The notes under the pieces were generated by a model. That model was not told where the DNA came from and made no database searches. It saw only the letters and a program-made list of their open reading frames with translations. The translations under genes were made by a program, and so were the position numbers. Below, in pieces: positions 22,418 to 51,847 of a stretch of 64,000 nt of DNA. The stretch's first letter is position 1. Each line of letters begins with the position of its first letter. The stretch comes from Eledone cirrhosa (Eukaryota): assembly GCA_964016885.1 (NCBI GenBank), contig OZ024741.1, positions 312,728,001-312,792,000 of the forward strand. Direction: 5' to 3'.

Positions 22418-25400
22418 GGCGACCTACGTAGTAAATCGTATCATCGTGAGCTCCGCAAATGTTTGTTATTTTCAGTTGTGTAAAATTGCCTTTCATGGAA
22501 AACTTTTATCATTAACTGTATATAAGTGCACATGCATTGTTATCTGAAAAGGACACCCAAAAAGATTGATGTATTGAGCCCAAAATTTAAACTTTTATAA
22601 TTATTAAACAAAAAATGTTCTTTAAAAAACCATGGCTGACTCAGAATCACTCCTTTCTCACAAACTAACACCTCACACCGACACCACCATTGTAAATATT
22701 ACTACGTTTGCCAACACTAAAAATATAAGCAGTAGCAATATTTTTAATTTGTTTCAGGCAGACATTCATTTCCCGCCATTACCAATGACTGCAGGTGTTA
22801 AAGCCGCCACCACCACCACCACCACCGCGACATGTGTGGGCAAAGAAAACACACACCAGACGTGGGCAGAAGTATGGAACCGTGGACGTGTTCTTTGAAA
22901 CACCACAGGAGGCTAGAGAACACTCCATGGCCCCATTAAGAAGTGACGACTTCACACACGTCCCAAGCTATTGTGGCCAGAGACTTGTAAAGATCAGGGC
23001 CACCCACGTTCCACCGGGCATCGAAATTCCCTGGCTAATAGCTGACATCCTCGCCGGCATCGAAGCCAACACCAAGATAATCGAAATAGCGAAAGAAAAG
23101 CAGGAGAACTGGTCCGGATCTGGAATCGATCTCCTGATCCTAGCGGACCAAAAAAGCATTGAGGAGATCCCAGAAGTAATAGACCTCACTGACGGCAGCC
23201 ACCTCACCATAATTGTCGAGGGCAGAAGGCTTAGGTGTGTCGTTTGTGGTGAAGGAACCTACCTAAGTGCTTTCTTCCCTCAGGCTAAAAGTTTAAGGCC
23301 ACCTCTCCTACCCACCCCAGTGACTCAACCATCAACACCACCAGCAGCAGAGATGGCAGCAACAACTGTAGCAGCAACAACAGAAGCAACTGTAACAGCA
23401 ACAACCCCAGCAACAGTAACAAAACCAACACCACCACCACCCAACGCGCCAGAACTAGCACCAGCGTCTACACCATCCACCAAGCAACAACCAAAACTAA
23501 CGCCTGTGGAGGATTTTCCACTCCCCGTCCTATCACAACTGGAGACGGATTGTGACTACGAGGAGTGGGAAACGGTATCAGGAAAAAAGAAAAAAAGAAA
23601 GGATTCTCTTCCTTCCCCTTCCAAAAACAAAATAAAGAAGGAAACAAATAAACTATCAAACAAAAAAGTTAGGACAGACATGCCACCATCCACACCAGCA
23701 TCACCAACCCCATCACCCCAAACACCAACACCATCACCTTCATTAACCCCAACACCACCATCACCTACACCACAAAAGTCACCAAAATGCGAAACAGAAA
23801 CAAACACACAACAAACGCAAACAAAACAAAACAACTAAAACGATACTCACTACACAGCATTAAATTTGAACAACAACCAATTATTACACTACATCCAACA
23901 CAACACCAGCATCACAGAAAAGACTACACAACAACCCAAAAGTTCACACCACCTCCACACATACAAATCACTCGCATCACACAGAAATCGTACATGACAC
24001 TAAAACAAAACTTCCCCAAAGATATCGGAGACTTCCGACAAGCACTCTCCAGGAGGATTTATAAGGACAACCTTCCTGAGGAGGCCACAAGCAGTTAAAA
24101 GGATGGAGAAACCGTCCTTCCTCTACGAGAAGTACGGTAAGTGGTCATTTCCATCTTTTCCACTCCATTTCAACATGACCACACTCAGAATAGGCAGCAT
24201 AAATGCGCGTGGCTTGGGGTCGTCATGGAAGCAGGGCCACCTGCCCAACGACCTCAGGTCACTAAACATAGATGTAGTGGCCATCAGCGAGACCAGAATC
24301 TCCGAAGCACGGGCCTTCACACCGATCTTCGGCGGCTACGATGTGTACGCAACTCCCAGTCGTCTGGGATCGGGGGGTAGAGTTGCTGTGCTTTTTCGAA
24401 GAGGTTTGGATCTTGCCATACGGGCCATCTTCCTGAAGCCAGAAAGTAAGTTGGTGGTGCTGGACGTGACCAGTGGAGACGGGCAAGCTTTCAGGTGAGT
24501 GGCCGACTATGCCCCGACAGGAGCAGGGCGACCTGATTTCTTCCGGCGTCTGGAGACCTTTCTTGCAACGTCTCGCTCTTTAGTGTTAGTGGGCGAATGG
24601 AACGGGATCTTAGATGCACGCTGGGACTGTGTGGGATTAGAGGATAGGGGAGGAGGTTGCAAGAATCTCACCAACCTGCTCAGACGTTTTGAACTGTCTG
24701 ACAGGTACCGACTGGATTTCCCGAATGTGCCAATGTGGACTTGGATAAATCCCATAGGGTCATCCAGATCATATCTAGATAGAGTATTTTGTAGGGAAAT
24801 AGATAGGTCTATCATAGGCTGTCCACAATTCAAGATAGTCAGTTACACGGACCACAAATTCGTGATCTGTGTGCTTGACTTAGATAGGCTTCATAGACGA
24901 GGGCCCGGCTACTGGAAGCTAAACGCGTCCTTACCAGCGCGCAAGTCCTACAGAGACCGGATTAGCGAACTAGTTAAGCGGGCGATGACGGGGGCCATCG
25001 TCAACAACAAGTGGTGGTTTGCTCTGAAAAGAGCAATTAGAATAGAGTCCATTAGGTTTAGTAAGGCTTTAGCAATAGAGAAAAATAGAGCAGAGGGAGA
25101 ATTAGTTAGAAAATTAACCGATGCGCTTAGCAATGGCATCGCGACCGACGTACTTGCGGCGAAATTGGCCCTTGACCAATTCTTCAATGCAAAGCACGAA
25201 GGCTGCCTTATCAGAGCTAGGGTGCGTGCTCTCGGACACGAGGGACGAAAGCCGTTCAATGGGCCCGAGTGGCGGAGGCGCGTCGTGGCAACATAGCCAC
25301 GATCCGGTCTTTGGCGGACCAGGACGGGCGCATGCTACTCGATCCCGGGACTTGTGTGAAGCTTTTCAGCGACACTTCGCACAGCTGTCCGGGGGCGGCG

Positions 25401-27850
25401 GCGGGCCGGATCGAGGGATGGACTTTAGTGTCTACCTCGACGGACTGCCGCGGCTCTCCGCCACTGAGACGGAGTGTTGTGAAAATCCGATAACAGCCGC
25501 TGAAGTACGGGAGGCAATGAGTGGCTGTACAATGGGTAAATCACCTGGTTTGGATGGTCTGCACTATGAACTTTACGTACAAATGCCAGACTTGTTCGGA
25601 GGCCTCTTGGCGGACGTCTACTGCAACTGGCAACAGAACGGGAGAATTCCCAGCTCTGTGAGCCGAGGAGTGGTGGCGCTGCTGAGAAAGGATCCGAACA
25701 AGGGGGATAACATAGATAATTTTAGGCCCATAACTCTGCTAAACACAGAGTTCAAGATTTTGGCCAAGGTGCTGCAAAAAGGTTGGCGCTTGTCGTTGGT
25801 GGTCTGGTGGGAGAGGCACAGACATGCGCCATTCCCGACAGATCCATCCACGATAACCTCCACCTCATCCGATATATCGTAGAGAGGGTAGCTAGGGAAC
25901 CTGGCACGGGTGGGTCCTTGATCAATTTAGATCAGTCGAAAGCTTTCGATAGGGTCGACCATCGTTACCTAGCGGCAGTCCTGAGGGCGGCTGGCTTTGG
26001 GCCCTTCTTCAGAGGCTGGATCGCTCACATGCACAGCGACATCTGCTCTGTGGTGAGAGTTAACGGTCACATTTCGGAACCGTTCAACATCATGCGCTCG
26101 GTCCGCCAAGGATGTTCCCTGTCGTCCCTCTTGTACGTATTGGCTCTCGAGCCATTACTGCACAAACTGGAGACGTTAAGGGGGTCCTGTGCGAACTAGG
26201 ATGCGGAAGCTCCGTGTCAGCATATGCGGACGATGTCACCGTAGTGGTGTCGAACGCCAAACACATCGCGCCGATCGGCACCACACTAAGAGAATACGAA
26301 GCGGTGATACGAGCAATGATCAACCAGGAAAAGTCAGTGGGCCTGCAGCTCGGCAACTGGAGAGGCATGTCCATGCCGTCCAACAGCGTCGTCGAGCGCT
26401 GGACGGGCGGACCGGTTAAATTGCTAGGGATCTGGTTCGGTCCGGACCTCCAAACGGACAAAAACTGGGACGAGCTGACGAGCAGGGTGGCTTCTCTCAC
26501 ACAGAAATGGACGGATAGCAAGCTATCCCTGAAAGGTCGAGCGGAAGTGGCTAACGCGTACATGGCGTCCGTCATCTACTAACGCCTGACCATGGTACCT
26601 TGTCCTAAGCCCCGCCTGACTGCGCTGGACCGGTTGCACTTTCGCTTTTTATGGAAGGGACGCGCTCCGATGGTCAGGAGGTCCATCCGCTGTCAACACC
26701 CGCTACGTGGAGGGCTGGATATACTGTGGCTGATGATGCGCAGACACGCGCTCAGGCTACGATATCTCCACCTCTTCCTCGACGGTGATCAGGTGTGGTC
26801 GCCGTTTGCTAGACACGTATTTTCCCAGCTCGTCTCCTTTACGGAGCTGCAGTCCTGGGTCAAGCGAAGACCGAGAAGGAGCGGTTGGAGACTGGAATAT
26901 CTTCAGGCGCTCACAGCCCTCGACCTATCAGGCAATGTGATCGGTGGAAACTCCACCTTGGCTTTCTATAGATGATTAGTGGAAGGGAAGAGCGACGACG
27001 TACTTGGAGAAACTCTAGGCGTCGACGAAAATCAACTAGCCAATCTCTTCGGAAGAACTTTCGGGCCAGGGCCTATGGACAACTTCAAGAAATCCCTGGC
27101 CTGTCAGTGCTACCAAGGAGCTTTGCCAGTTCGGGATAAACTCTACAGGCATGGAGGTGCCGTCAGCCGGGCATGTCCGAGATGCGCTCAGGGCGACGAA
27201 ACCATCCTGCACGCACTCGTCCAGTGTCCGAGCATTGCTGACTTGTGGGTTTATGTCGAACACCTGCTGTCACGTGTAGGACGGATCCAGCTATCAGCTG
27301 AGTCCATCGTGAGGATTACCCCGCCCTCTTCCTTTAGCCGGGAAGGGCAGGCAGTTTTTATCTGTCTGGTGGACATGGCGAAAGAGATAGTATGGTGGAC
27401 ACGTTTGAAAGGGCTGAAGACGAGCACTTACCTCTTCGGTGATGCCCTGATTAACTTTTTCAAATTTCATTTGAAAAGGAAAATCAGAGTAGAGAGGGAA
27501 GTGCTCTCTTCCCAGCATTTTGTTGAAAGATGGGTGAGAGAAGCAAGTATGGCCCGTGTGAATGGGTCTACTCTAAGTATCTGTCTGTAAATTAAAGGTG
27601 AAAAACTGGGAGAGGGCACTTGCCCTGGTGGTCAGGGTCACTGTGGCCTTTTAATGGGCTTTCACTGTGGCCTTTTAATGGGCTACCTTCGGAAGTCTCC
27701 CCCCTATTGGGGAATTTTTCATTGTTATTTTTTTATTACATCCTCTGTTTTTTTTTACACGCAGAAATGCCCATTTGTACCGTCACGTATTGTCCTCTAC
27801 TGTCCTTAATATCTACTTTATGTAAACCCTTGTGGTTAATAATGCGAGCA
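22418..27850 (+). mobile_element. Tx1/L1-like retrotransposon family A, copy 1, full span, degenerate
   Basis: 5' end ggcgacctacgtagtaaatcg directly after (TTA)n. ORF1 (YGTVDVFF, Pro/Thr-rich tail), ORF2 from ATG 24175: APE (INARGL, AISET, YAP, YLDRVF, TDHK), RT (SPGLDG, KAFDRVDH, YADD), zf-RVT. Ends cttgtggttaataa..(ATT)n. Confidence 0.93.
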
Positions 27851-28102: not shown

Positions 28103-31100
28103 GTTTATTGAAGGTGAAGCCACGCTTCTTATTGCCTCCTGTTTTTTTTCAACACTCTACCTCGTTTTCAACCGTTCTAAACCTTTTATTCAAGTTTTAA
28201 ACTTAATAAAACTTTAGAAGTGACCCACCTAATACAGGGGTTCACTCGTAAATAATACTGCACCGCTTTCCGGGGTGTCGTATGTTGTAAAAATATTATT
28301 TGAAAAAAATTCCTTTCAACATGGAGAACACAAGAAAGCGAGAGAGTGCTGTCAGACAACACAGAGAGAGGGAGACTGTCAACATATCAACAAGACAGGG
28401 TTCCAGCGAAGGTAATTTTAAAAGAAAATATTACGAAGGAAAAGAGGAACAATAGCATTTTTAATGATATTGTTACAGATTTAAAATTACCAAATATTTC
28501 TAACACAAACAACACCAACAACAAGACAATCAATAACAACAGCAACAACAAAAATAACAGTGGTAAGGTGGAGAACGACTATAACAATGACAATAACAAC
28601 AGCCACAACAACAATAATAGTAGGAACAGTATCAACAAAAAACAACAATAATAACAACAGCCACAATAACAGTAACAACAACAACAGTATGAACGAAAAC
28701 AACAACAGCAACAACAGTACCAACGATGACATCAACAATGACATCGATACCTGTAACAGTGATCTCAGCACCACCAGCAAGATCAGTAGCGGCAGCAATA
28801 GTGGTGCTGCTGAAAAGGGGACCACTTCTTTTGCAGGAGTCGCCCGAAATATCGAAACAGTGTTAGTCAGTGAGGCGGAGATGGCAGTCGCAAGTGCCAT
28901 GGTGACAAGAAACGCCAATAGAGTTTCCTTGAAACCTCCACCCAATTTTTTCAAGGACCAGCAGCTACGGTCGGTGACTTACCGCACCGTAAGCAAAATA
29001 TCACATGGGGTGGAGAGAGCCACAGAGGCTCAAATCCAAAAGGCCTTGGGGTGCGTCTGAGCACGCAAAACCCACATCACCCGAGACAGAAAGTACGTCA
29101 CAGTAGACGTACTTTACTCCTCCCCTCAAGAAGCGAAGTCTCACCTTTTGGAAACCCTAAAGAGTGAGGAGATAGTCGTGGTGCCCTCCTACTGCGGGCA
29201 GAAAATTGTGAGGGTCAACTTGGCTGGCCGCGTCTGTCTTTGCTGGAATCGAGGACAGGACGACCATGCTGCTAGTAGAGAAAATAGGGAGAGAGAACTG
29301 GTCAGGTATAGGCATGCAAATGCTTATACAAACTGACCAGGAACGTATCGACGCTATACCCGATATCGTAAACCTCGAGGAAGGACTCCAACTCCCTATA
29401 AGTGAGAAGGTATACGGCCAAAATGTTATCTCTGTGGGTCAAAGGGTCACCGCAGGGCCTTTTGCACGAAGAAGACAGCGAAGTAGAATGCCCCTCTCCT
29501 TCCAATACCTGGTCCGCTGCTACCAAGAGCAGGGCAGGCAACAAACGCAGAAGCCCCTTCCACGGTGAGTAGGAGGGCAACGTCCGTGGAACCCGTACCA
29601 AGGCCACGGACAACTAAAGCAGCAGCGTCAGTAGCGGCAACACCAGTAGCAACACCAGCAACAAAATCGACGGAGAGGGCTCCACTACCACCACCAACAG
29701 CTGTGGAGCACATACCCCTCCCAGACGCCACGAAATCCGACATGGAGTCTGAGGCGGGAGTGAGGTGGCAAACGGTCTGCCACAAAAAAAAGAAAAAACT
29801 AAAACCCCTTAGCTTCACCTCCAAAAGCGAAGGCACACAAAGAGGGGTAAAGGCTGCAAGGAGACTTACAGCAACATCACCACCAACACCATCACCACTA
29901 CAAGCACCACCGCCAACAACAACCACACCAGCACCAGCATCACTAAAGACACCAACAACGCAAACACAAAAAAACATACACACCCAACAGCAACAAGAAG
30001 AAAACAGCAACAAAATCACCCCTCTCCCCAAAAAACTACACAGCCATAATCATGGCAAATAAAGAACTCATACAATATATAAAGCAGCACACAGAAAATA
30101 CTACTACACTCCACCAACACCAAGAACTCCTCCGACAAACATAAGTATCATTGAAATCAAAATAGAACAGTACAAACTTTTAAAACAAAAATTGCCCAAC
30201 CCAGTTGGAGACTTCGGAGGGTCAGTTACCAAGAGGATATACACTGACATCCACTTGGAAACCCCCATGACCAGCCAAAGGGACGGTTCTACTGTCCATT
30301 CACCACACGATCAAGGTAAGTGACCCTTTCTCACTTGACCCGTTTCTCATCCAACATGGCCGTTCTTAGAATAGGCAGTATAAATGCACGTGGCCTGGGA
30401 TCATCTTGGAAGCAGGGTCACCTGCTCAACGACCTCAGTTCAATAAACATAGATGTGGTGGCCATCAGCAAGACCAGAATCTCCGAAGCACGAGCCTTCG
30501 CACCAATCTTCGGCGGCTACGATGTATACGCATCTCCCAACCGTCCTTTTTCGGAGAGGCTTGGATCTCGCCATACGGACCATTTTCTTGGACCCAGAAG
30601 GTAATTCGGTGGTGCTGGACGTGACCGGCAGCGAAGGCAATGCTTTCAGGCTAGTAGCCGTCTACGCCCCAACTGGGCAGGACGGTTAGTTTTCTTCAGA
30701 CGTCTAGAGACCGTTCTTGGAACGTCCCGCTCTTTAGTGTTAGTGGGCGACTGGAACGGCATCTTGGATGCCCGCTGGGATTGTGTGGGGATAGTGGATA
30801 GGGGAGGAGGGTGCAAGAGCCTCACCAACCTGATCAGACGCTTTGAACTGTCTGACAGATATCGACTGGATTACCCAAATGTGCCAATGTGGACAGGGAC
30901 AAATTGTATCGGGTCATCCAGATCGTATCTCGATAGGGTATTCTGCAGGGAACTAGATAAGGCTATTATAATTCGTCCACAATTTAAAGTAGTCGACTAC
31001 ACAGACCACAAATTTGTGATCTGTGAGATCGGCATAGACAAACTTCATAGACAAGGACCCGGTTACTGGAATCTGAACGCGTCTTTCCCGGCGCGCAAGC

Positions 31101-33926: not shown

Positions 33927-36900
33927 TTTTGAATGCCATGGTTGACGGAGGCTCGGGTCTGTAAGGTATAGTAATTTTTAACCGCTATAACAATTGTAAA
34001 TTGTTTAAAACTTTTACCAAATTGTAGATAAAATCACCCTACTCCTCGTGAGAGGGGTCTTTCTGCCCGTTATTTGGCCCTTCGGGGTTAAATAACCGCT
34101 TATTGGGGTTTTGTGCCCAATATTCATTTCAAACCAAAAACAAAACATGGCTACAAAAAAGAATTTTCACAAGTCACTCCCACTCATTCCGTCTTCTTGT
34201 TCGTCAATCGTCACTACATCAGAGAGACGATTGTCTGTCTCCCTCCCTTCTCTAAATGTGGTGTCGCCTCTTTCGCAAGCGACACCATTAAAGAAAAAGA
34301 AAAATATAGTTTCTGATAGCTTTCACCAAGAGCACGTGCATACCGTGGAACATTTCTCCATGACGACAACGACGAAAAATGTGTGCGGTAAATACGGAAA
34401 GCCATTTCATTCGTCTGACGTCATGAAGAATAGCAGTAGCAGCCGTAATAACAGCAACAGCAGCATCAGTGACAAGGAAAACACTAGTAGTAGCCGCAAC
34501 AACATCAGCAGCAGCATAAACAACAACAACAGCAGCAGCATCAGTAACAACAACAACAACCACAGCAACAGCGGAGGCGGTGGTCGTAGTACCAGCAGCA
34601 ACAACAAAAGTAACAGCAGCTCTGACGACAACAACAACAACAACAACAAAGAAAAACCAATCTCGTTTGCAGGTATCGCAAAGAACCTGGAAACCATCCT
34701 TATAACAAATGAGGAATTACAGGAAGCAAAGGAGATGGTGACGAAAATCGGACACCGTGCAATCTGCAAGGCAGTAAGCACAAAATCACGTAGGGTTGAA
34801 AGAGCCACAGAGGCTCAAATACAAAATGCCTTAGGGTCTGTATGGCAGCGGAAAACGCATCTCACCCGAGGCAAGAAATATGCCACCGTGGACGTGTTTT
34901 TTGCCACACCTCAGGAGGCAAAGGCTCAATCCTTAGTGACCCTAAGGAGCGAGGAATGATGGTGTTGGTGCACTCCTACTGCGGGCAAAAAATTGTGAGG
35001 ATCAAACTGACCCACGTCCCCCCTCCCGGGATGGCCTCTTCTTGGCTTTCCGCGTCTGTCCTCTTCGGAATCGAGGACAAAACAACTGTACTACAAGTAC
35101 AGAAAAAAGTACGAGAAGATTGGGTTGGCACCTCCATTGAGATGCTAATCCAAACCAACCAGGAGTGCATCGAAGCTATCCCTGTTGTGATAGACTTCGA
35201 TAACGGCACTAAACTGCCCATAAGTGTTGAGGGCAAACGCCCGAAATGCTTTCGCTGTGGATCGAAGAATCACTTCAGGGCCTTCTGCAATGAGAAGACC
35301 CTGAGAAAGGAGAAAATCCCCCTCCTTCCGAAACCGGCTCCACTGCTACCAGCAACAGGACAGGCGGCAACCAGGAAGGATAGGTCCGGAGCACCCATAC
35401 CCACGCCACGGAAATCAAGAACAGCAGCAGCAGTGGAGGTATTACTAACAACAACAGTAATACCAACTGCAGCTGCAACAGAGACTCCACTGCAAACATC
35501 ACCAACAACAACAAGTCAAAGAGTGGAGCTGGTACCCCTCCCCGACCTCACAGAATCGGACATGGAGTGTGAGGTGGGGGAGGGATGACAAAAGGTCGCA
35601 ATAAGGCACAAACGCAGAAGCAGCGCATCGTCGCCTGCGAAAAGGGAGGAAATAAATGAAAAAAGCGTAAAGGCTACTGCAAAGAGTCTTACAGCAGCAA
35701 CAGCACCAACACCATCACCACCCACACTAGCACCACCATCACCAGCGGCGGCAACCCCACCGCCAACAATAACAACACCTTCAACACCACCACCACATGC
35801 ACCAACATCGCAAACACAACAAAACATACACAGCCAGCAACAACGACAAGAAAATAGCAGTTCCACTCCCCACCCCCAGAAAAACAGATGCACAGCAATA
35901 AATACAAACAACAAAAACCTAGTCACTTACATAATTGAACACACAGACATTTCACAGCACGACTACATAATACCAGCACCAATCAAAACACCAACAAACA
36001 TAAGACTGGTAATAGCACAGAAACAATACACAAACATTAAAATGAAATTCGCCAACGCAGTTGGTGATTTCAGAGACCTAGGACACTCAACCGGAGAGTA
36101 TATTCGGATATACTCACAGAAGAGCCGACGACCAGCCGAAGGGACGATTCAACGGTCCCTTCACCAGACGATCAAGTTAAAAGGGATGGAGAAACCATCC
36201 TTCCTCTACGAGAAGTAAGGTAAGTGGTCTTTCTCATCTTTTCCACTCAATTTCAACATGACCTCACTCAGAATAGGCAGCATAAATGCGCGTGGTTTGG
36301 GGTCGTCATAGGTAAAGGGCCACTTGCTCAACGACCTCAGATCACTGAACATAGATGTAGTGGCCAACAGCGAGATCAGAATCTCCGGAGAACGGGCCTT
36401 CGCACCGATCTTCGGCGGCTACGATGTGTACGCATCTCCCAGCCGTCCTGGATCGGGGGGAAGAGTTGCTGTGATTTTTCGGAAAGGTTTGGATCTCGCC
36501 AAACGGGCCATCTTCCTGGACCCAGAAGGTAAGAAGAGACGGGCAAGCTTTCAGGCTAGTGGCTGTCTATGTCCCGACAGGAGCAGGGCGGCCCGATTTC
36601 TTCTGGCGTCTGGAGAACTTTCTAGGAACGTCCCGCTCTTTAGTGTTATTGGGAGATTGGAACGGGATCTTAGATGCACACTGGGATGTGTGGGATTAGC
36701 TGATAGGGGAGGAGGGTGCAAGAGCATCACCAACCTGCTCAGACGTTTTGAACTGTTTGACAGGTACCGATTGAATTTCCCGAATGTGCCAATGTGGACT
36801 TGGTCAAATCGCATAGGGTCATCCAGATCATATCTAGATAGAGTATTTTGTAGGGAAATAGATAGGTCTAGCATAGGCTGTCCACAATTCAAGATAGTCA

Positions 36901-38558
36901 GTTACACGGACCACAAATTCGTGATCTGTGTGCTTGACTTAGATAGGCTTCATAGACCAGGACCCGGCTACTGGAATTTAAACGCTTCCTTACCAGCGCG
37001 CAAGACCTACAGAGGCCGGATTAGCGAACTAGTTAAGCGGCCGTTGCGGGGCCCATCGTCAACAACAAGTGGTAGTTTGCTATGAAAAGAGCCATTAGAA
37101 TAGAGTCCATAGGTTTAGTAAGGCTTTTTTGGCCCTTGACCAATTCTTCAATGAAAAGCACGAAGGCTGCGTTGTCAGAGCTAGGGTGCGTGCTCTCAGA
37201 CACGAGGGGACGAAAGCCGTTCAATGGGCCCGAGTGGCGCAGGCGCGCCATGGCAACAAAGCCACTATGCGGTCTTTGGTGGACCAGGACGGGCGCATGC
37301 TACTCGATCCCGGGAATATGTGTGAAGCTTTTCAGCGACACTTCGCACAGCTGTTCCGGGGCAGCGGCGAGCTTCCCTCTTGTACGTATTGACTCTCGAG
37401 CCATTACTGCACAAACTGGAGACGTTGAGGGGGGTCCCGCGCGAACTAGGATGTGGAAGATCCGTGTCACCATATGCGGAAGATGTCACCGTGGTGGTGT
37501 CGAACGCCAAACACATCGAGGCGATCGGCACTACACTAAGAGTATACGAAGCGGTGACAGCAGCGATGATCAACGAGGAAAAGTCAGTGGGCCTGCAGCT
37601 CGGCACCTTGAGAGGCAGGTCCATGCCGACCAACAGCGTCGTCGGGCGCTGGACGGACGGACCGGTTAAATTGCTACGTGTCTGGTTCGGTCCGGACCTC
37701 CAGACGGACAAAAATTTGGACAAAAAATGGGCGGAGAGGAAGCTATCCCTAAAAGGTCGAGCGGAGGTGGCTAACGCGTACATCGCGTCCGTCATCTACA
37801 ATCGCCTGACCGTCGTACCTTGTCCTTAGCCCCACCTGACTGCGCTGGAGCGTATGCTCTTTCGCTTTTTGTGGAAGGGACGCGCTCCGATGGTCAGGCG
37901 GTCCATCTGCTGTCAACTCCCGCTACGTGGAGGGTTGGGCATGCCGTGGCTGATGATGAGCAGACATGCGATCAGGCTACGACATCTCCACCTCTTCCTC
38001 GACGGTGATCAGGTGTGGTCGCCGTTTGCTAGACGCGTCTTTCCCCAGTTCATCTCCTTGATGGAGCTGCAGTCCTGGGTCAAGCGAAGACCGAGTGGGA
38101 GCGCTTGGAGACTGGAATGTCTGGTGGCCATGGCGAAAGAGATACTATGGTGGACACGTTCGAAAGGACTGAAGACGAACAGTTACCTCTTCGGTGATGC
38201 CCTGATTATCTTTTTCAAATTTTATTTGAAAAGGAAAATCTTGTTGAAAGATGGGTGAGAGAAGCAAGTATGGCTCGAGTGAATGGGCCTACTCTGAGTA
38301 TGTGTCTGTAACTTAAAGGTGGAAAACTGGGAGAGGGCACTTGCTCTGGTGGTCAGGGTCACTATGGCCTTTCAATGGGCTGTCTCCACAAATGTTCCTC
38401 GGAAGTCTCCCCCCTATTGGGGAATTTTCATTGTTGCTTTTTTATTACATCCTCTGTTTTATTTACACGCAGAAATGCCCATTTGTACCGTCCTGTATTG
38501 TCCTGTACTGTCCTTAATGTCTACTATATGTAAACCCATGTGGTTAATAAAGAAAGCA
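33927..38558 (+). mobile_element. Chimeric Tx1: distinct ORF1 (family C) joined to a Tx1-A ORF2, with internal deletions
   Basis: ORF1 with CFRCGSKNHFRAFC (CX2CX4HX4C). From 36177 onward nearly identical to Tx1-A including the 3' UTR. Deletions near 37370 and 38120. Confidence 0.9.
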
Positions 38559-38702: not shown

Positions 38703-38724
38703 TTATTATTATTATTATTATTAT

Positions 38725-40200
38725 TGTTCTTTGAGTCTCAGTCATTGATGTTAGTTAACTGGAAAGTTTGTTGAAATGAATATCAAGCCACTACCTGCAG
38801 CCTCAGATATTTAGGATGTATCGGAGGGTTCTTGCTGTTCCCAGCAAGCATGCCTTTTGAAGTGTTCCAAAAAACGGGACGGGGCCAATTTTCTTTAACC
38901 ATCCCTGGAAACTCTTTGAGATAGTCCCTAGTGCGCCTATGACAATCGGGACCACTTTGACTTCATGGCAGTTCTCCCTCTCCTCTTGCACTCTCGTGTC
39001 GAATGGGCAGGCCACATCCACAATCAGGCACGATCTTTTTTCCTTGTCCAAAACCACCAGGTCAGGTCTATTGTGTTCCAGTTTCTTGTCCGTCTGTATC
39101 CTAAAATCCCACAGCACCTTCACCTGATCGTTTTCTATCACCGACTCTGGCTTATGCTCATACCACTTCTCAGAATGTGGTAAATTGTTTACTTTGCATA
39201 GGTGCCAGTGGATCACCGTGCCCATCACATCATGTCTCCAGCCCTTATAGTGAGTCTGGGCTAGGTGTTTACACTCGGATACAATGTGAGCCACAATTTC
39301 CTCTCTCTCTCCACAGATCCTGCACAGTGGGCTAGCCTCCTCCTTGTAAATATGGTGTTTCAGCCACTTCGTTTTGAGGGCCTGCTCTTGCGCAGCCATT
39401 AGCATTCCTTCTGTAGCCTTTTTAAGGTCACCTCTTTTCAACCAGTTCCATGTCTGTGGATCTCTAAATTCAGTTTTCTCAAAGAAGGTACTATGAAGGG
39501 ATTTTTCATGAAGGCTGCTCTTTCTCCTTGTTGTTATTTCCTCCTTGGACATACCCTGGTCTATTGTCCTCTCCATCAGTACAATTCTGAGCATTAGCTT
39601 CCTACTGTCAGTCACCTATTTGTGCAGGTTGTTTTCTCCATCCGAACACAGTCCTCTATGCTGATAATACATATTCTACCTTCAGATCTCTTTAAGTAGA
39701 GTCTAACGACATCACTCCTCTTGTGGAACATGTTGTAGATAGTCAATAGCTTCCTAATCTATCCATTTCTTTTTGTTCAGCAACATTCTATTTCAGAATT
39801 CCCGCACTGTACCTAATAATTGTTTCTACGTTAGGAACAAGGCCAGCAATTACCCAGTGCATTACTGGTACTTTATTTTATCGACCCCGTAAGGATGAAA
39901 GGCAAAGTCAACCTCGGCGGGATTTGAACTCAGATCGTAAAGAGACGTAACTATGCTGGAAAGCATGGCGTCCGACCCTCTACCGATACTGCCATCGGGA
40001 ATTCACTGCACTTATGACATTCCTACTATTTAGATGTGATTTTAATACGTTCCTTACTCTCCTAATGTACTCAGATCTTATCGATTCCTTCTTTTTTTTT
40101 TTTTTTTGTTCTTGATGTCATCTGCCTCCAGAACACCTAAATATTTGTATCCTTCTTCAGTGTCAATTTCCTTTATCATCTCACTTGTTGGTACCTGGAT
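38725..40200 (-). mobile_element. Dong-A, 5'-truncated, interrupted by a SINE
   Basis: 270-aa ORF with CRICGEREEIVAHIVSEC and HNRPDLVVLDKEKRSCLIVDVACPFD. Confidence 0.92.
39820..39994 (-). mobile_element. tRNA-derived SINE, copy 4, nested in Dong-A coding sequence
   Basis: Same family, 5'-truncated at the A box, inserted at a native taataat. Confidence 0.9.
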
Positions 40201-40232
40201 TATTATTATTATTATTATTATTATTGTTGTTA

Positions 40233-43200
40233 TTCCTTGAATCTCAGTCATTGATGTTGGTTAACTGGAAAGTCCGTTGGATTGAATATCAAGCCACTAC
40301 CTGCAGCCTCAGATATTCAGGACGTATCGGAGGGTTCTTGCTGTTCCAAGCAAGCATGCCTTTTGAAGCGTTCCAAAAAGCGTGAAGGGGCCGATTTTCT
40401 TTAACCATCCCTGGAAACTTTTGGAGATAGTCCCCAGTGCGCCTATGACAATCGGGATCACTTTGACTTCATGGCAGTTCCAAATCCTTTTCACCTCCCA
40501 CTTTAGGTCCTGGTATCGGTTAATTTTCTCCCTCTCCTTCTCTTGCACTCTCGTGTCGAACGGCAGGCCACATCCACAATCAGACACGATCTTTTTTCTT
40601 TGTCCACAACCACCAGGTCAGGTCTATTGTGTTCCAGTTTTTTGTCCGTCTGTATCCTAAAATCCCACAGCACCTTCACCTGATTGTTCTCCATCACCGC
40701 CTCTGGCCTATGCTCATACCATTTCTCAGAATGTGATAAATTGTTTACTTTGCACAGGTGCCAGTGGATCACCCTGCCCATCACATCGTGTCTCCAGCCC
40801 TTATGATGGGTCTGGGCTAGGTGTTTACACTCGGACACAATGTGAGCCACAGTCTCCTCTCTCTCTCCACAGATCCTGCACAGTGGGCTAGCCTCCTCCT
40901 TGTAAATATGGTGTTTCAACCACTTCGTTTTGAGGGCCTGCTCCTGCGCAGCCATTAGCATTCCTTCTGTAGCCTTTTTGAGGCCTCCTTTTCTCAACCA
41001 GTTCCATGTCTGTGGATCTCTAAATTCAGTTTTCTCAAAGAAGGTACTATGAAGGGATTTTCCCTTAAGGCTGCTCTTCCTCCTTGATGTTATTTTCTCC
41101 TTGGACATCCCCTGGCCTACTGTCCCCTCCTTCAGTACAGTTCTGAGCATTGGCTCCTTACTATAGGTCACGTATTTGTATAGGTTGTTTTTCTCCATCT
41201 GAACACAGTCCTCTATGCTGATAAGACCTCTTCCACCCTCAGATCTCCCTAGGTAGAGTCTATCGACATCACTCCTCTTGTGGAACATGTTGTAGATAGT
41301 CAATAGCTTCCTAGTCTTCCTATCCATTTCTTTTTGTTCGGCAACATTCCATCTCAGAATTCCCGCACTGTACCTAATAATAGACACAGCTCGGGAATTT
41401 ACTGCGCTTATGGCATTTCTGCTGTTCAGATGTGACTTCAATACGCTCCTTACTCTCCGAATGTATTCAGTTCTTAACAATTCCTTCATTTTTTTGTTCT
41501 TTATGACATCAGCCTCCAGAACGCCCAAATACTTGTATCCTTCCTCAGAGTCAATTTCCTTTATCATTTCACCTGTTGGTATCTGGATCCCGTTACTTCT
41601 GCTCAACCTACCCCTCCTCATCACAATGACTCCACATTTACCAATACCATACTGCATGCATATATCATTGCTGAAAATACGGACAGTGTCAACAAGCACA
41701 TCCAACTCCTTCTCACTTTTCCCGAAGAGCTTAAGATCGTCCATAAAGAGGAGGTGATTGATGGTAAGCTCTCCCCTTCCAAACTTGTATCCTGCTCTCA
41801 CTTTTCGCAGCATAATGGTCAAGGGCATCAGGGCAAGGACAAACAACAGAGGGGACAGGCTATCTCCCTGGAAGATACCTCTCTTGATCTTCACACTTCC
41901 CAAGGATACTCCAGTTGATGTCAACTCTGTCTCCCAGGACCGCATAATCCTGCCCAGCAACTGTCTGATGTTGTCTGCCACCCTGAAGATCTCCAGGCTT
42001 TTGGTGATCCAAGAATGAGGCACCATGTCAAATGCCTTTCTGTAGTCTATCCATCCCATGGCAAGATCAGTGTGTTTCCTCCTGCAATTCCCCATTACCA
42101 TCTTATCAATAAGTAACTGGTCCTTTGTACCACGTGACTTCTTTCGGCATCCTTTCTGTTCGTCCGGTAACAAGTTGTTTGTATGGAGGTGATGGTAGAT
42201 TTCCTCAGACACGATGCTCGTCAACAGTTTCCACATTACGGACAGACATGTGATAGGTCTGTAGTTGGTAACATCATTACACTTGATTCGGTCTTTCATT
42301 ATCAGAACTGTGGTAACTTTTGTCAACCACTCTGGCACCTCACCCGACACCAAGCAGTCATTGAACATGGCCGTCAGCTTCGGGTGGAGGGATGTTAAAT
42401 GTTTAATCCAATACCCCTGCACACCATCTGGGCCTGGTGATTTCCAGTTGGTTAGTTTTTTGGCCTGCCCCTTAAGAGTTTCAACTGTGATACTCAAATC
42501 AGTTTGTTGTTGTGCCTGCTCACCGATCTCCCTCTGTACTGTCTCAATCCACCCTGCTTGGACATTATGTCTAACATCCTGCTCCCATATTCCTCTCCAG
42601 AATGTTTTAGTTTGCTCCGCCCCAGGGATCAAGTCGTTGCCTCTTTCTTTTCCCTCAAGCTGTCCAAACAGCATCTTCTGGTTGTTGTCGAACATGCGGT
42701 TCTGTTTATACTGACTGACTCTGTTCTCGTATCGCCTGATTTTTGCACTCTTTGCTACAATGCGTTGCTTCAGTTCCTCTATGGTAATATTTAGCTTTTT
42801 CCTCCTAGTTTTGTATTTTATTTCCAGTCTATTTTTAGTGCCTATGTTTTTTAGTGTCCCATTCAGTAGTGACTCAAGCTTTCCTATGACATTTCTCATT
42901 TCTCCGATTTGCCCACTCAGTCGCTTCTTCCACCACGGCTCTGCTCTTTCTTGTCTGTTGTTTCCTCTCGCTTTTATACCAAGTAGTTTCCTCACCGTAT
43001 TTGCTGTTGCTTTGAGGATATTGTTGCACTGGTGAAGGCTCCTCGCCTCAAGGTATGGGATGACTTTGTTTACCTTAGCTGTTGATTCTTTTAACTTTTT
43101 CCTGTCTACAAATCTTAGGTTCATAGGTTTCCCACTATCATTGTTCAATTCAACTACCACTAAATTTAGGGTGTCAACCGAATCTTGTCCTAGCCCGTCA

Positions 43201-43388
43201 GCATTCATCTCCTCAGTGGCCGTATCTCTGTTCCAGGTATTATTTATCTCAGTATTCAGATCATTGTCTGCTTCGGGTGGTTCCTCCGTTCTCAGGACCT
43301 CTTCACCTTCATTTCCCACTGGCTCGCTTGTCTGGCATACTACACCCGCCATCTCCAAGCCATTCTCTCTGCTCAGTTCCTCCAGTTC
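40233..43388 (-). mobile_element. Dong-A, 5'-truncated, best-preserved copy
   Basis: Contains the 951-aa ORF and the 3' UTR. TTA tracts on both sides. Confidence 0.95.
40503..43358 (-). pseudogene. Dong-A RT-CCHC-RLE polyprotein (951 aa open; N terminus missing, frameshift inside the RLE)
   Basis: WKSPGPDG, NYRPITCL, DYRKAFDMVPH, GIFQGDSLSP, FMDDLKL, YKYLG, GGRGL, CRICGEREETVAHIVSEC, HNRPDLVV..DVAC. Continues in another frame (40309-40587). Confidence 0.93.
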
Positions 43389-43389
43389 C

Positions 43390-43659: not shown

Positions 43660-45648
43660 ATGGCTACTTCACCTCTGCACGAAGCAGCTGAAAGCCTTCC
43701 TCACAAAATAACACCTCACACCGACACCACCATTGTAAATGTTACTACGTGTGCCAACACAAAAAAAAATATAAGCAGTAGCAATATTTTTAATTTGTCT
43801 CAGGCAGACATTCATTTCCCGCCATTACCAATGACTGCAGGTGTTAAAGCCTCCACCACCACCACCACCGCGACAACCACCACCACCACCACCACCACCG
43901 CGACAACAAAAACAAAAGAAGAAAAAAATAAATTAACTCGTGATGTCGAAATGAAATCAAGCAAAATGGACTCTTCCCCACCAAAGACGACTGACGTCAC
44001 CACCACCACAACTGAAACTAAAATTAATATTAACACAAATAACGATAGCAACAACAACAACAATGACACTATAAAAACCACCCTCAGTTTCGCCAGAGTA
44101 GCAAAACAGTTCGAAGCATTTACAGTAACTCAGGAGAATTTAGAAAATGCCAAACAAATGGTAAAGAAAGATGGGTACAGGGTCAGCCTCACCCCCCACC
44201 TAATAAAATGGAGCATCGGTGCCTATGCACCGTGTCGTATCGGACAATAAATGTAAAATCGCGCCGAGTGGAACGGGCATCCGAGTCCCAAATCCAAAAA
44301 GCTTTGGGACATGTGTGGGCAAGAAAAACCCACATCAGACGTGGGCAAAAGTATGGAACCGTGGACGTGTTCTTTGAAACACCAGAGGAGGCTAGAGAAC
44401 ACTCCATGGCCCCATTAAGAAGTGACGACTTCACACTCGTCCCAAGCTATTGTGGCCAGAGACTCGTAAAGATCAGGGTGACCCACGTTCCACCGGCCAT
44501 CGAAATTCCCTGGCTAATAGCGGCCGCCCTCGCCGGCATCGAAGCCAACACAAAAATAATAGCAATAGCAAAAGAAAAGTAGGAGAACTGGTCCGGATCT
44601 GAGATGGAGCTCCTGATCCAAGCGGACCAAAAAAGCATTGAGGAGATCCCAGAGGTAATAGACCTCACTGACGGCAGCCACCTCACGGTAATTGTCGAGG
44701 GCAGAAGACCTAGGTGTGTCGTTTGTGTTGAAGGAACCCACCTAAGGGCTTTCTGCCCTCAGGCTAAAAGGTTGAGGGCACCTCTCCTAACCACCCCAGT
44801 GACACAACCATCAACACCACCAGTAGCAGAGATGGCAGCAACAACTGTAGCAGCAACAACAGAAGCAACTATAACAGCAACAACCCCAGCAACAGTAGCA
44901 AAACCAACACCACCACCACAACCAGCAAAACCAACACCACCACCACCCAACGCTTCAGAACTAGCACCAGCGCCTACATCATCCACCACGCCACAACCAA
45001 AACTAACGCCTGTGGAGGATTTTCCACTCCCCGGCCTATCACAACTGGAGACAGACTGTGACGACGAGGAGTGGGAAACGATATCTGGAAAAAAAAAAGA
45101 AACCAAAAAAGAAAAAATTCTCTTCCTTCCCCCTCCAAAAACAAAATACAGAGGGAAACAAATAAACTATCAAACAAAAAAGTTAGGACAGATATGCCAC
45201 CATCCACACCAGCATCACCAACCCCATCAACCCAAACACCAACACCATCACCATCATTAACCCCAACACCACCATCACTACACCACAAAAGTCACCAAAA
45301 TGCGAAACAGAAACAAACCCACAACAAACGCAAACAAAACAAAACAACCAAAACGATACACACGACACAGCATTAAATTTGAACAACAAGCAATTATTAC
45401 ACTACATCCAACACAACACCAGCATCACAGAAAATGACTACACAACAACCCCAAAGTTCACACCATCTCCACACATACAAATCACTTGCATCACACAGAA
45501 AACGTACATGACACTAAAAAAAAAATTCCCCAAAGACATCGGAGACTTCCGACAAGCACTCTCCAGGAGGATTTATAAGGACATCCTTACTGAGGAGGCC
45601 ACAAGCAGTGAAAAGGATGGAAGAACCGTCCTTCCCTACGAGAAGTAA
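43660..45648 (+). pseudogene. Tx1-A ORF1 (low-complexity N terminus, RRM-like segment, CX2CX4HX4C knuckle, Pro/Thr-rich tail)
   Basis: MATSPLHE..., SFARVAK, GQKYGTVDVFF, CVVCVEGTHLRAFC. Several frameshifts and stops. Confidence 0.8.
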
Positions 45649-45655
45649 GGTAAGT
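45648..45655 (+). promoter_or_regulatory. Consensus 5' splice donor AG|GTAAGT at the Tx1 ORF1/ORF2 boundary (also at 24137, 30316, 36220, 51259)
   Basis: GGTAAGT is present in all five ORF1-bearing Tx1 copies, 37-40 nt before CAACATG. Function is inferred. Confidence 0.55.
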
Positions 45656-45687
45656 GGTCTTTCCCATCTTTTCGACTCCTTTTCAAC

Positions 45688-48600
45688 ATGACCTCACTCA
45701 GAATAGGCAGCATAAATGCGGGTGGCTTGGGGTCGTCATGGAAGAAGGGCCACCTGCTCAACGACCTCAGGTCACTAAAGATAGATGTAGTGGCCATCAG
45801 CGAAACCAGAATCTCCGAGGCACAGGCTTTCGCACCTATCTTCGGCGGCTACGATGTGTACGCATCTCCCAGCCGTCCGGGATCGGGGGGAGGAGTTTCT
45901 GTGCTTTTTCGGAGAGGTTTGGATCTTGCCATACGGGCCATCTTCCTGGACCCAGAAGGTAAGTTGGTGGTGCTGGACGTGACCAGCGGAGACGGGCAAG
46001 CTTTCAGGTTAGTGGCCGTCTATGCCCCGACAGGAGCAGGGCGGCCTGATTTCTTCCGGCGTCTGGAGACCTTTCTTGGAACGTCCCGCTCTTTAGTGTT
46101 AGTGGGCGACTGGAACGGGATCTTAGATGCACGCTGGGATTGTGTGGGTTTAGTGGATAGGGAAGGAGGGTGCAAGAGTCTCACCGACCTGCTCAGACGT
46201 TTTGAACTGTCTGACAGGTACCGGATGGATTTCCCGAATGTACCAATGTGGACTTGGACAAATCGCATAGGGTCATCCAGATCATATCTAGATAGAGTAT
46301 TTTGTAGGGAAATAGATAGGTCTAGCATAGGCTGTCCACAATTCAAGATAGTCAGCTACACGGACCACAAATTCGTGATCTGTGTGCTTGACTTAGATAG
46401 GCTTCATAGACGAGGACCCGGCTACTGGAAGCTAAACGCGTCTACCAGCGCGCAAGGCCTACAGAGACCGGATTAGCGAACTAGTTAAGCGGGCGTTGAC
46501 GGGGGCCATCGTCAACAACAAGTGGTGGTTTGCTCTGAAAAGAGCAATTAGAATAGAGTCCATTAGGTTTAGTAAGACTTTAGCAATAGAGAAAAATAGA
46601 GCAGAGGGAGAATTAGTTAGAAAATTAGATGAGGCGCTTAGCAAAGGCATCGCGACCGACGTACTTGCGGCGAAATTGGCCCTTGACCAATTCTTCAATG
46701 CAAAGCACGAAGGCTGCGTTGTCAGAGCTAGGGTGCGTGCTCTCAGACACGAGGGGACGAAAGCCGTTAAATGGGCCCGAGTGGCGGAGGCGCGTCGTGG
46801 CAACAAAGCCACGATCCGGTCTTTGGTGGACAACGACGGGCGCATGCTACTCGATCCCGGGCAAATGTGTGAAGCTTTTCAGCGACACTTCGCTCAAATG
46901 TTCGGGGGCAGTGGCGGGCCGGATCGAGGGATGGACTTTAGTGTCTACCTCAACGGACTGCCGCGGCTTTCGGCCACTGAGGCGGAGTGTTGCGAAAAGC
47001 CGATAACAACCGCTGAAGTACGGGATGCAATGACTAGTTGCACAAGGGGTAAATCGCCTGGTTTGGATGGTCTGCCCTATGAACTTTACGTACAAATGCC
47101 AAACTTGTTCGGAGGCCGCTTGGCGGACGTCTACTGCCACTGGCAACAGGACAGGAGAATTCCCAGCTCTGTGAGCCTAGGAGCGGTGGCGCTGCTGAGA
47201 AAGGATCCGAACAAGGGGGATAACATAGATAATTTTAGGCCCATATCTGCTAAACACAGAGTTCAAGATTTTGGCCAAGGTGCTAGCAAAGAGGTTGGCG
47301 CTTGTCGTTGGTGGTCTGGTGGGAGAGGCACAGACATGCGCCATTCCCGACAGATCCATCCACGACAACCTCCACCTCATGCGATACATCGTAGAGAGGG
47401 TAGCTAGGGAACCTGGCACGGGTGGGTCTTTGATCAATTTAGATAGAGTCGAAAGCCTTCGATAGGGTCGACCATCGTTACCTAACGGCAGTCCTGAGGG
47501 CGGCTGGCTTTGGGCCCGTCTTCAGAGGCTGGATCGCTGCCATGCACAGCGACATCTGCTCTGTAGTGAGAGTGAACGGTCACCTTTCGGAACCGTTCAA
47601 CATCATGCGCTCGGTCCGCCAAGGATGTCCCCTCTCGTCCCTATTGTACGTATTGACTCTCGAGCCATTACTGCACAAACTGAAGACGTTGAAGGGGGAC
47701 CCACGTGAACTAGGATGCGGAAGATCCGTGTCAGCATATGCCGACGATGTCACCGTAGTGGTGTCGAACGCCAAACACATCGAGGCGATCGGCACTACAC
47801 TAAGAGAATACGAAGCGGTGACAGGAGCAATGATCAACCAGGAAAAGTCAGTGGGCCTGCAGCTCGGCACCTGGAGAGGAAGGTCCATGCCGTCCAACAG
47901 CGTCGTCGGGCGCTGGACGGACGGACCGGTTAAATTGCTAGGGGTCTGGTTCGGTCCAGACCTCCAGACGGACAAAAACTGGGACGAGGTGACGAGCAGG
48001 GTGGCTTCTCTCACCCAGAAATGGGCCGAGAGGAAGCTATCCCTGAAAGGTCGAGCGGAGGTGGAGAATGGGTACACCGCATCCGTCATCTACTACCGCC
48101 TGACCGTCGTACCTTGTCCTAAGCCCCGCCTGACTGCGCTAGAGCGTTTGCTCTTTCGCTTCTTGTGGAAGGGACGCGCTCCGATGGTCAGGCGGTCCAT
48201 CTGCTGTCAACACCCGCTACGTGGAGGGCTGGGCAAGCCGTGGCTGATGATGCGCAGACACGCGCTCAGGCTACGACATCTCCACCTCTTCCTCGAGGGT
48301 GATCAGGTGTGGTCGCCGTTTGCAAGACACGTTTTTCCCCAGCTCGTCTCCTTGACGGAGCTGCAGTCCTGGGTCAAGCGAAGACCGAGAGGGAGCGCTT
48401 GGAGACTGGAATGTCTTCAGGCGCTAACAGCCCTCGACCAATCGGGCAATGTGATCGGTGGAAACTCCACCTTGGCGTTCTATAGGGGATTAGTGGAGGG
48501 GAAGAGCGACGACGTACTTGGAGAAACTCTAGGCGTCGACGAAAATCAACTAGCCAATCTCTTCGGAAGGACTTTCCGGCCGGGGCCTATGGACAACTTC

Positions 48601-49016
48601 CAGAAATCCCTGGCCTGGCAGTGCTACCGAGGAGCTTTGCCAGTTCGGGATAAACTCTACAAGTATGGAGGTGCCGTCAGCCGGGCATGTCCGAGATGCG
48701 CGCAGGGCGACGAAACCGTCCTGCACGCACTCGTCCAGTGTCCGAGCATTGCTGACTTGTGGGTTTATGTCGAACACCTGCTGTCACGTGTAGGACCTAT
48801 CCAGCTATCAGCTGAGTCCATCGTGAGGATTGCCCCGCCCCCTTCCTTTAGCCTGGAAGGGCAGGCAGTTTTTATCTGTCTGGTGGACATGGCGAAAGAG
48901 ACAGTATGGTGGACACGTTTGAAAGGCCTGAAGACGAGCACTTACCTCTTCGGTGATGCCCTGATTAACTTTTTCAAATTTCATTTGAAAAGGAAAATCA
49001 GGGTAGAGAGGGAAGT
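45688..49016 (+). pseudogene. Tx1-A ORF2 (APE endonuclease, RT, zf-RVT)
   Basis: Long frames 45688-46476, 46496-47407 and 47542 onward carry GDWN, TDHK, SPGLDGLPYE, VRQGCPLS, YADD and CPRC..ETVLHALVQC. Confidence 0.92.
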
Positions 49017-49238: not shown

Positions 49239-51847
49239 TAGTTTTTGTATTTTCTTATCGAAGCATAAGGTACCCACCTAGGTTCCAAGGTGGGAAAACC
49301 TCTCAATATTCGGGCTTTAAGCCCGAATATCCAGATTTATATTCAGATTAACAGATTTATTTTAAAAACCGCTTCTCCATCAAAACAAACAAAAAATGGA
49401 AAATTTCGACCTTGAAACAGTACACAACATACAGGTCAAACGTTCAAGCCTGTCACCAATCCCACTGAATACAGAAAGAAGATAGTAGCAGTACCTTCTC
49501 AAAATGACATCACCACCTCCACCACATACTACACAACAACTCAGAAAAACAACGACACCAACAACCTCATTGTAAACATTATATACAATGTAAACACTGA
49601 TGGCGGCGGCAAGAGCAACGGCAACAGCAACAAACAAAACAACAACAACACCAACAACAAGAGCAAGAACGACAACACCAACAACAAGAGCAATGGACGC
49701 GTCACCTTTGCAGCGGCAGCTGCGAAAACAAAGCGCTTTTTCAATGTGGATATTAGCGATAAGGACCAGCAGTTGGCCCAGGCGTGGAGGTTAATTAAGC
49801 GAGAGAAGTCCTGGGCAAACCTGACCATCCCGGACGGGGAAATTGTGGCCATGCAAAGGAGGACGGTGTACTTTCGATGCATTTCAGTGCAGACACGTAA
49901 AGTGGAACACGCTAGCCAAGCAGAAGTCGAGGCTGCTTTGAGGTGCATCGGAAGTGACATCGAGTACAAAGCAATGGCCAAGCAGTTCGGTACCATCTGC
50001 GTGCTGTTCAAAACCGAGGCCCTTGCTATTAAGCACTCGGTGACCCCCTGCAGAATGGAACGCATATCATGCACCCGTCCCACATGGGCAAAAGGACAGT
50101 AAAGGTCCGCATTTCCAGGATCCCACCAGGAATGAACATATGGTGGCTCCTGGGATGCGTAATCGATAAGGTGACAGACACTACCCTCCTAGATATCAAA
50201 CGGACAGAGAGAGAAGACTGGTCTGGAATGGATTTGGAGATTCTTCTCCAAATGAAACCATCCCGGATTTTGCCCGCCTGCAGGACGGGACAAGAATCCA
50301 ATTAATCAGTGAGGGAGGAAAGCCGCACTGCTTCGTCTGCGGAGAAGCAACACATCTGTAAGCCTTTTGCCCTCAGCTCAAAAATTTACGGGGTCGCAAA
50401 CCCCCTTTGTTGCCAACGCCAGTGTCAGCACGGAAAGTTGCCCCACCAACACTAAAAACAACACCAACAAAGACACAGGTAACACCGCCAACATCAAAAA
50501 CAGCTGGACCAACACCAACACCGAAACCAATCCAAGAGGAAAACGAGGAAAGCTCTCTCACTCCCCCTACCCATCCAATTATACACATAGACAAAACAAT
50601 AAACTCACACACAGACACAGATACACTCACAGCCGCAGACCCTTTGTCTTTCAGCAGCGAAGATGAAGGAAAACCCAAAAGTGCCAAAAAACAGAGAAAA
50701 CTCACCAAAAAAGCCCCAATAAAACACAAAAACATACACAACAAAAAATACAGACGCCACTAACGCAAACACTTCCCCAATAACATCAGCATCAACATCA
50801 ACATTAACACCACCTCCACAATCCCCGAAACGCAACAACCTAAACAAACACAAGAACAAATAAACACACAAATACCTGAAATTGGAGACACCACACCTAC
50901 AACAAACACAGACATACCCGAAACAACACCACCAAAACCATCACCCCCACAGTCACCAAAACGAAAATAAATAAAACCACACCAACAAAATATTAAAAGA
51001 TAAACTGATGGCACTTTGAGCACGAAGCGAGGACATTCAAACAGAGGGAGAGATCTTTGAAATGAGCACATTTTGCGTGCCAGAAGATTTTCTTCTTATC
51101 CGAATGTCGCTCGATTCCTTCAAAGAAATTCGGAAGAGCTTTCCTCAAGACGTGGGAACACCGAATGTTAAACCCACATCGAGACATTTAAAGGGGTTCC
51201 AAAAGAAACCTACCAACCATGGAGATCGAACCACCCGACCTTCACAAAACCCCGAGAGGTAAGTAAACCTTCCATCTCTCTTTTAGCTTTCCAACATGGC
51301 CATATTAAGAGTAGGAAGTTTAAATGTTTGCAGCCTGGGGTCACCCTGGAAGCAGGGTCGCCTGCTCAACGACAATCAGATATTTGGAAATCGATGTGAT
51401 TGCCGTGAGCGAGACCAGAATTTCCGACTCGCGCACACTAGCTCCCATTTTCGATGACTATCAGATCTTCGCATCTTTTAACAGGCCGGGAATGGGAGGT
51501 GGGGTGGCAGTGCTGTTTAGGTCAGGACTGGATCTCGAGGTAAGGTCGATCTTCCGGGACACGGAGCGTAAGTTGGTGGTCTTGGATGTGAGCAGCAGCG
51601 AAGGTGGTGCCTTTAAACTGCTGGCCGTCTACGCCCATACTAGGTACGTCTCGCCCTTTACTGTTAGCGGGGGACTGGAACAGCATCTTACACGCACGCT
51701 GGGATTGTGTGGGAGTAGCTGATAGGAGCGGGTGGTGCAAAAGCCGCTAGCACCTAATCAGCCAGTTCCAACTGTCTGACAGGTATCGACTAGAGTTCCC
51801 CAATACGCCAATGTGGACATGGACCAACCACATGGGGTCATCTAGAT

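Follow-up and report, generated by a model that had tools for sequence, protein, structure and literature searches.

Tx1-type long interspersed nuclear elements (LINEs), which belong to the L1 group, include microsatellite-targeting families such as Kibi at (TC)n and Koshi at (TTC)n (PMC4494074), and L1-Tx1 families have been counted in Octopus vulgaris (PMC13282606). In the Arabidopsis Ty1/Copia element EVD, which produces shGAG, U1 small nuclear ribonucleoprotein (snRNP) permits formation of an RNA for the structural protein only and also keeps the full-length RNA from terminating prematurely, a precedent for splicing-independent action of U1 at a retroelement donor (PMC5580714). The stretch of the Eledone cirrhosa genome analysed in this work (64,000 bp, contig OZ024741.1; G000:C2:312728001-312792000 of the 3.0-Gb genome; further referred to as the window) is a nest of retrotransposons lacking long terminal repeats (non-LTR). 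Five sites resembling a splice donor are found in it, all of them inside elements with two open reading frames (ORFs), at the junction between ORF1 and ORF2. Comparative evidence indicates that this is a real, deeply conserved splice-donor motif of one LINE subclade, whose function we infer. Because LINEs have to be copied from unspliced RNA, one would expect a strong splice donor to be harmful to them.

Like the microsatellite Tx1 LINEs, the elements described here have two ORFs, a zinc-knuckle ORF1 and an ORF2 with endonuclease, reverse transcriptase and zinc finger, and their family A is flanked on both sides by (ATT)n. As a difference, we found no mention of a conserved donor at the ORF1 stop in the accessible portions of the two reports (PMC4494074, PMC13282606).

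Donor-like motif at the ORF1/ORF2 junction

PF03372, PF00078 and PF13966 were matched on the ORF2 of L040 and L237 and on the window ORFs, giving an N-terminal apurinic endonuclease (APE), a reverse transcriptase (RT) and a C-terminal zinc finger. ORF1 of L040 (661 aa) is separate and upstream; its C-x2-C-x4-H-x4-C zinc knuckle was read by eye, with no Pfam knuckle match, and PF00098 was matched on the homologous ORF1 of L237. Family A is about 5.9 kb long and young (97% identity among its best matches). By inspection, (ATT)n is present at the 3' end of 10 out of 10 family A copies and at the 5' end of most aligned full-length loci, so this family has the target-specific insertion characteristic of the Tx1 clade. 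We take the elements to be Tx1-like from the label given in the first-pass annotation, their architecture and general knowledge of the clade; our tree contains no named reference element.

All five sites are on the forward strand. Copy A1 has CG|GTAAGT at 24135..24142 (GT at 24137), followed by a pyrimidine-rich spacer, CAAC and the ORF2 ATG (24143..24177, ATG at 24175). AG|GTAAGT of family B, together with the stop, occupies 30314..30323 (GT at 30316), its spacer and ATG 30324..30358 (ATG at 30356). A hybrid copy carries motif, spacer and ATG at 36218..36260 (GT at 36220, ATG at 36258). In copy A2, AG|GTAAGT is located at 45648..45655 (GT at 45650) and the spacer with ATG at 45656..45690 (ATG at 45688). 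Family D has AG|GTAAGT with the stop at 51257..51266 (GT at 51259) and the spacer with ATG at 51267..51298 (ATG at 51296). All these coordinates agree exactly with the first-pass annotation, as do the pyrimidine-rich spacers, the CAACATG and the distances from GT to ATG (38, 40, 38, 38 and 37 nt). The motif at the junction exceeds chance: GGTAAGT-N24-36-CAACATG has 6,339 matches in the genome versus 107 for the reversed control, and a shuffled 86-nt junction reaches an 8/9 donor match in only 2-14 of 2,000 shuffles.

The position of the motif relative to the ORF1 frame varies among families, as had been noticed earlier, with phase assignments other than those proposed. The reading of family B as GK followed by TGA was right: two codons precede the stop (phase 1) in 20/20 loci, GK in 18 of them, and in the window copy the stop is at 30321-30323. 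A TAA preceding the motif in A2 and one inside it in D had both been read from frameshifted copies and did not hold. ORF1 of family A ends with R-TAA, the stop being inside the motif as in A1, in 29 out of 30 genomic loci; only the frameshifted window copy A2 itself departs from this (family-frame stop at 45651-45653). With the family A stop thus placed within the motif, the preceding TAA of A2 belongs to the ORF2 frame. Family D ends with GK-TAA, like B, in 16/20 loci (stop at 51264-51266). Overall, the motif is in phase 2 in families A, E, G, H and I and in phase 1 in B and D; families D and E have homologous ORF1 tails and carry it in different phases.

Families A, B and D, regarded as three independent ones in the first-pass annotation, turned out to belong to a single clade in a quick tree, and in the endonuclease (EN) region A shares 92% identity with B and 59-70% with the remaining families. 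Due to this common origin the motif has been retained rather than acquired convergently. The site at 36220 is indeed derived from A: in the hybrid (34147-38574) a B-like ORF1 passes near its end into an ORF1 tail, spacer and ORF2 of A type. A comparable hybrid exists elsewhere in the genome (L092/L143), which suggests ORF1 swapping.

Conservation in this genome and in a distant lineage

For the survey we used a pattern matching the ORF2 start alone and not the donor, which gave 7,858 matches, 100 of them listed. Forty stretches were examined: 20 new ORF2 starts from the listed matches, and 20 taken from the listed matches, donor-pattern matches and searches with B and D. The analysis covered 58 of 65 junctions, seven being left out as interrupted or frameshifted, L122 included; this set also contains loci selected by the donor pattern, and the ORF2 starts of L071, L073, L074 and L141 are not matched by the survey pattern.

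A donor-like site was found at the ORF1 end in 58/58 junctions (about 14 families), 25-47 nt upstream of the ATG and in two codon phases; over the families of the 40 stretches this distance is 25-52 nt. Columns -2 to +6 contain A in 55, G in 57, G in 58, T in 57, only A or G at the next two positions, then G in 57 and T in 58 junctions, and the flanking columns vary. The family variants (GTAAGT, GTGAGT, GTAGGT and CAG|GTAATT) are, judging by their letters, those tolerated at 5' splice sites. A tree of four-fold degenerate sites for these junctions has a length of 4.54 (internal branches 2.82). Scored against a donor consensus taken from general knowledge, 24 of 25 elements have 7-8 matches out of 9, the only miss being L263.

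A second GTAAGT located about 309 nt downstream provides an internal contrast. It overlaps the GKL codons of the endonuclease (AG|GTAAGT and DPEGKL in A2, 45957..45964, forward strand; also at 24446 and 51568) and is found in A, B and D only. In A and B it is a perfect donor, and most families have lost it.

Animal-type DNA binned in a bacterial metagenome-assembled genome (MAG) contains tandem elements with ORF2 41% identical to those described above. Many contigs of this MAG (L232-L273, record CAXXMW01) are head-to-tail arrays of eukaryote-type LINEs, which points to host contamination. In this lineage the ORF1 TAA is followed by G|GTAAGT, 13 nt upstream of the ORF2 ATG, in 70/70 ORF1 ends (overlapping loci in which copies repeat). 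This is a third codon phase, in which the would-be exon contains the stop. In a quick tree the two clades are separated by approximately 1.5 substitutions per site of ORF2, and the ORF1 products are about 23-27% identical over the alignable part.

The same lineage, including L263, has GTRAGT with a U-rich tract shortly behind the ORF2 stop (42/42 ends, overlapping loci). No reading frame follows, so a translation signal would not explain it. A kept pyrimidine-TAG is located about 250 nt past this second GTRAGT in L237:8469-8760 and related loci, and L263:4430-4860 has TACTAAC upstream of a tract and TAG. By sequence, the post-stop donor and acceptor of the distant lineage look like a retained 3' untranslated region (UTR) intron within a LINE.

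Conservation in a wider set of related families, proposed earlier as a check, was found in part: about 14 families and the distant lineage possess the motif, while its sister family L263 and 33 out of 34 more distant L1/Tx1-like loci (22-33% identity) do not. In just one of these 34 does the junction region reach a 7/9 donor match; they were kept, out of 59, for having an ORF1 of 150 codons or more close to ORF2. We saw no closer lineage: when this genome was searched with P0002, the 40 scored matches all had 40-41% identity. No relative was found in the viral contigs searched, and an Rfam search with L237, L263 and L033 gave no match. Presence of the motif in about 14 families here and in a 41%-identical lineage of another host, in three codon phases, supports the suggestion that it is under selection at the nucleotide level.

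Acceptors, spliced copies and the role of the motif

A candidate acceptor, a T-rich tract followed by ACACGCAG, had been pointed out in the family A 3' UTR. It is present in A1 (27757..27764, forward strand, CAG at 27762-27764) and in the A-type 3' UTR of the hybrid (38465..38472, forward strand, CAG at 38470-38472), and was found in 19 out of 23 A-type 3' ends. It is specific to A: family B has ACACGCAC in its place and acceptor-like sites in none of six 3' ends, such sites occur in 4 of 18 ends of other families, and those in four of five D ends are scattered in position. Comparison of 3' UTRs, ORF2 and the ORF2 stop revealed no acceptor common to the families; only within the distant lineage is one kept. 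An ORF2 alignment of 16 elements has 87 kept AG columns, but the best ones of pyrimidine-YAG type belong to coding sequence, with no clear favourite among them. We also considered and rejected an acceptor at the ORF2 stop, as several families have TAG|G there but A has TAA.

Among 18 non-standard A junctions, versus 2,380 intact ones, none is a spliced copy and none joins a candidate acceptor; most are point changes and small indels, the rest including an inversion, a fragment and a deletion that ends with GG. The search required an exact exon end of 15-16 nt, its filters pass approximately 75% (A) or 56% (H and I) of arbitrary acceptors, and the named A candidates would pass them. Searches with H and I gave one uninformative match each, intact junctions being uncounted, and no spliced form is present among the 70 ORF1 ends of the distant lineage. 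The deletion, in the full-length A copy L151 (L151:3502, G000:C4:91550986), removes 346 nt in frame from the donor into the endonuclease region. As its 3' end is GG and not AG, we rejected it as a spliced copy; this single copy, with 1-2 nt of microhomology, is probably a microhomology deletion. Other rejected candidates are L278 (a short fragment), L279 (an inversion), L281 (a point mutant) and L280 (probably a chance match). When contigs of four runs, whose kind is unrecorded, were compared to L033:1520-7394, none of the 15 listed joints started at the donor (602 further joints are unlisted, and depth does not rank the parts); one contig of run X6 crosses the donor unspliced. This comparison speaks neither for nor against splicing.

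All readings taken together, the motif is likely to be a U1 site of the 5' splice-site type. The first-pass annotation suggested such a site, serving either to splice out ORF2 or to protect the long transcript from premature polyadenylation; conservation resembling that of 5' splice sites agrees with the site itself, while both uses stay hypothetical, with no spliced copy found and ORF2 nearly free of AATAAA. Our tentative preference is for U1 docking mostly without completed splicing. These Tx1-like LINEs keep AG|GTRAGT over or beside the ORF1 stop codon; U1 snRNP would bind there and may prevent premature cleavage and polyadenylation, or make the RNA more stable, as in Copia EVD and at retroviral major donors, and the long two-gene RNA would be made full length. 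The pyrimidine tract behind the motif may assist U1 recruitment or keep U1 from entering splicing, roles of the kind ascribed to TIA-1 and PTB. Occasional family-specific splicing, e.g., to the CAG in the A 3' UTR, could also occur. Docking agrees with the lack of a common acceptor and of spliced copies and with the second donor behind the ORF2 stop of the distant lineage.

Several observations weigh against docking. ORF2 holds 0-2 A(A/T)TAAA hexamers in most uninterrupted copies, leaving little downstream to protect; in most families AATAAA occurs within ORF1, 140-570 nt upstream of the donor (the two B copies have none), which is what the A-rich composition would predict. Since 16 out of 56 four-fold sites of the endonuclease region are likewise at least 90% invariant, the conservation seen in this genome has by itself only moderate significance. 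L263 has TAATG, an overlap of ORF1 stop and ORF2 start, in place of the motif (L263:955-975), and its ORFs are still intact; its position in the tree means, as far as the sequences tell, one loss of the motif or two gains. The 3' UTR of the main distant group has a kept acceptor of pyrimidine-TAG type (47/47 matches, overlapping loci). Finally, the tight coupling to the ORF1 stop is easier to understand with real splicing than with docking alone.

The main rival is a productive donor: some transcripts would lose ORF2 by splicing to an acceptor that differs between families and lies either in the 3' UTR or outside the element, producing an ORF1-only mRNA and an excess of ORF1p similar to Copia GAG. 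Every family has the site only a few nt from the ORF1 stop, which means that spliced RNA would retain nearly the whole ORF1, and in A1 the frame past the CAG reaches a stop after 19 codons, still ahead of the 3' end. The T-tract-CAG of most A ends and the distant lineage, with its stop in the exon and its kept acceptor, also agree with this explanation, and Copia is a precedent (PMC5580714). We still consider it somewhat less likely than docking, given the patchy acceptors of B, D and the other families, the TAA at the ORF2 stop of A, and the intact junctions, beside which our searches found no spliced copy. A broader proposal, that the whole subclade treats ORF2 as a retained intron, alternating between full-length RNA for copying and a spliced, uncopied ORF1-only mRNA, with the donor fixed at the ORF1 stop, is likewise less likely than not.

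Explanations not involving U1 seem unlikely to us. Such a motif could be a context for termination at ORF1 and reinitiation at ORF2, or an uneroded stretch inherited along with the stop codon. The TAA, TAG and TGA variants inside it would then simply be the three stop codons in the phase-2 families, the four-fold sites mentioned above are often invariant as well, and replacement by TAATG in L263, similar to the UAAUG coupling in SART1, suggests that the junction serves translational coupling. However, the motif stays while the stop moves through three phases, the last codon in phase 2 is AGG in nearly all cases and +5 and +6 lie past the stop, it survives at 41% ORF2 identity, and behind the ORF2 stop of the distant lineage it recurs with nothing left to reinitiate. 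It is still far less probable that a short intron removes the stop and spacer, fusing ORF1 to ORF2 in frame. In A an AG located 14 nt into ORF2 has the matching phase, and the L151 deletion is in frame and begins at the donor; but the phase fails in B and D, family E has CGA instead of this AG, and the length would be about 39 nt in H and 52 nt in A. In addition, ORF2 keeps its CAAC-ATG (which the survey pattern itself demanded), and the L151 deletion, a single case with microhomology, ends with GG.

Window surroundings and comparison with known retroelements

ORF2 of A2 (45688..49016, forward strand; APE endonuclease, RT and zf-RVT) is frameshifted and interrupted at 49016 by another LINE. 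The D element is split by an insertion (51850-55204) containing an ORF (54173-54541) which presumably is a fragment of a hAT-type transposase. Single-ORF RT LINEs, which we assume to be R4/Dong-like, are nested with the Tx1-like copies at 1744-4185, 12334-15382, 38703-43389 and other positions, apparently sharing (ATT)n targets. The 3' UTRs of A, B, D and others have a common CCTATTG(G/A)GGA before a U-rich tract and end with GTGGY(N)AATAAA; other families terminate in (TATC)-like repeats and not in (ATT)n.

That the motif has been retained over an ORF2 distance of about 1.5 substitutions per site points to the use of U1 snRNP by a non-LTR element. If true, this bears on the ORF1p:ORF2p ratio of LINEs and on keeping the long two-gene RNA whole. 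The genome has more than 6,000 sense-strand donors of this kind, which may also affect host transcripts. In the literature searched (subscription journals and Repbase entries were outside the search) we found no description of a conserved donor at a LINE ORF1 stop, nor of a Copia-like ORF1-only expression strategy for non-LTR elements.

Retroviral major splice donors, that of HIV-1 included, suppress polyadenylation in the LTR. The foamy virus donor resembles the motif described here in placing U1 at a donor on RNA that is copied unspliced, but it acts on a defined LTR poly(A) signal (PMC3694450), and no such signal was identified in the Tx1-like LINEs. Human L1 is another LINE whose RNA has functional splice donors; the splices reported for its spliced integrated retrotransposed elements (SpIREs) begin in the 5' UTR, are presented as harmful to retrotransposition and leave spliced genomic copies (PMC5860796), whereas our donor is located at the ORF1 stop and deeply conserved, with no spliced copy found. 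Copia EVD also has a conserved donor of U1 type, located close to where its structural-protein gene ends. Unlike the elements of this genome, which have two separate ORFs and no conserved intron with a common acceptor, EVD belongs to the LTR elements, encodes one polyprotein ORF and contains a conserved intron whose splicing was demonstrated. As the example of EVD suggests, docking of U1 and productive splicing can coexist at one donor (PMC5580714).

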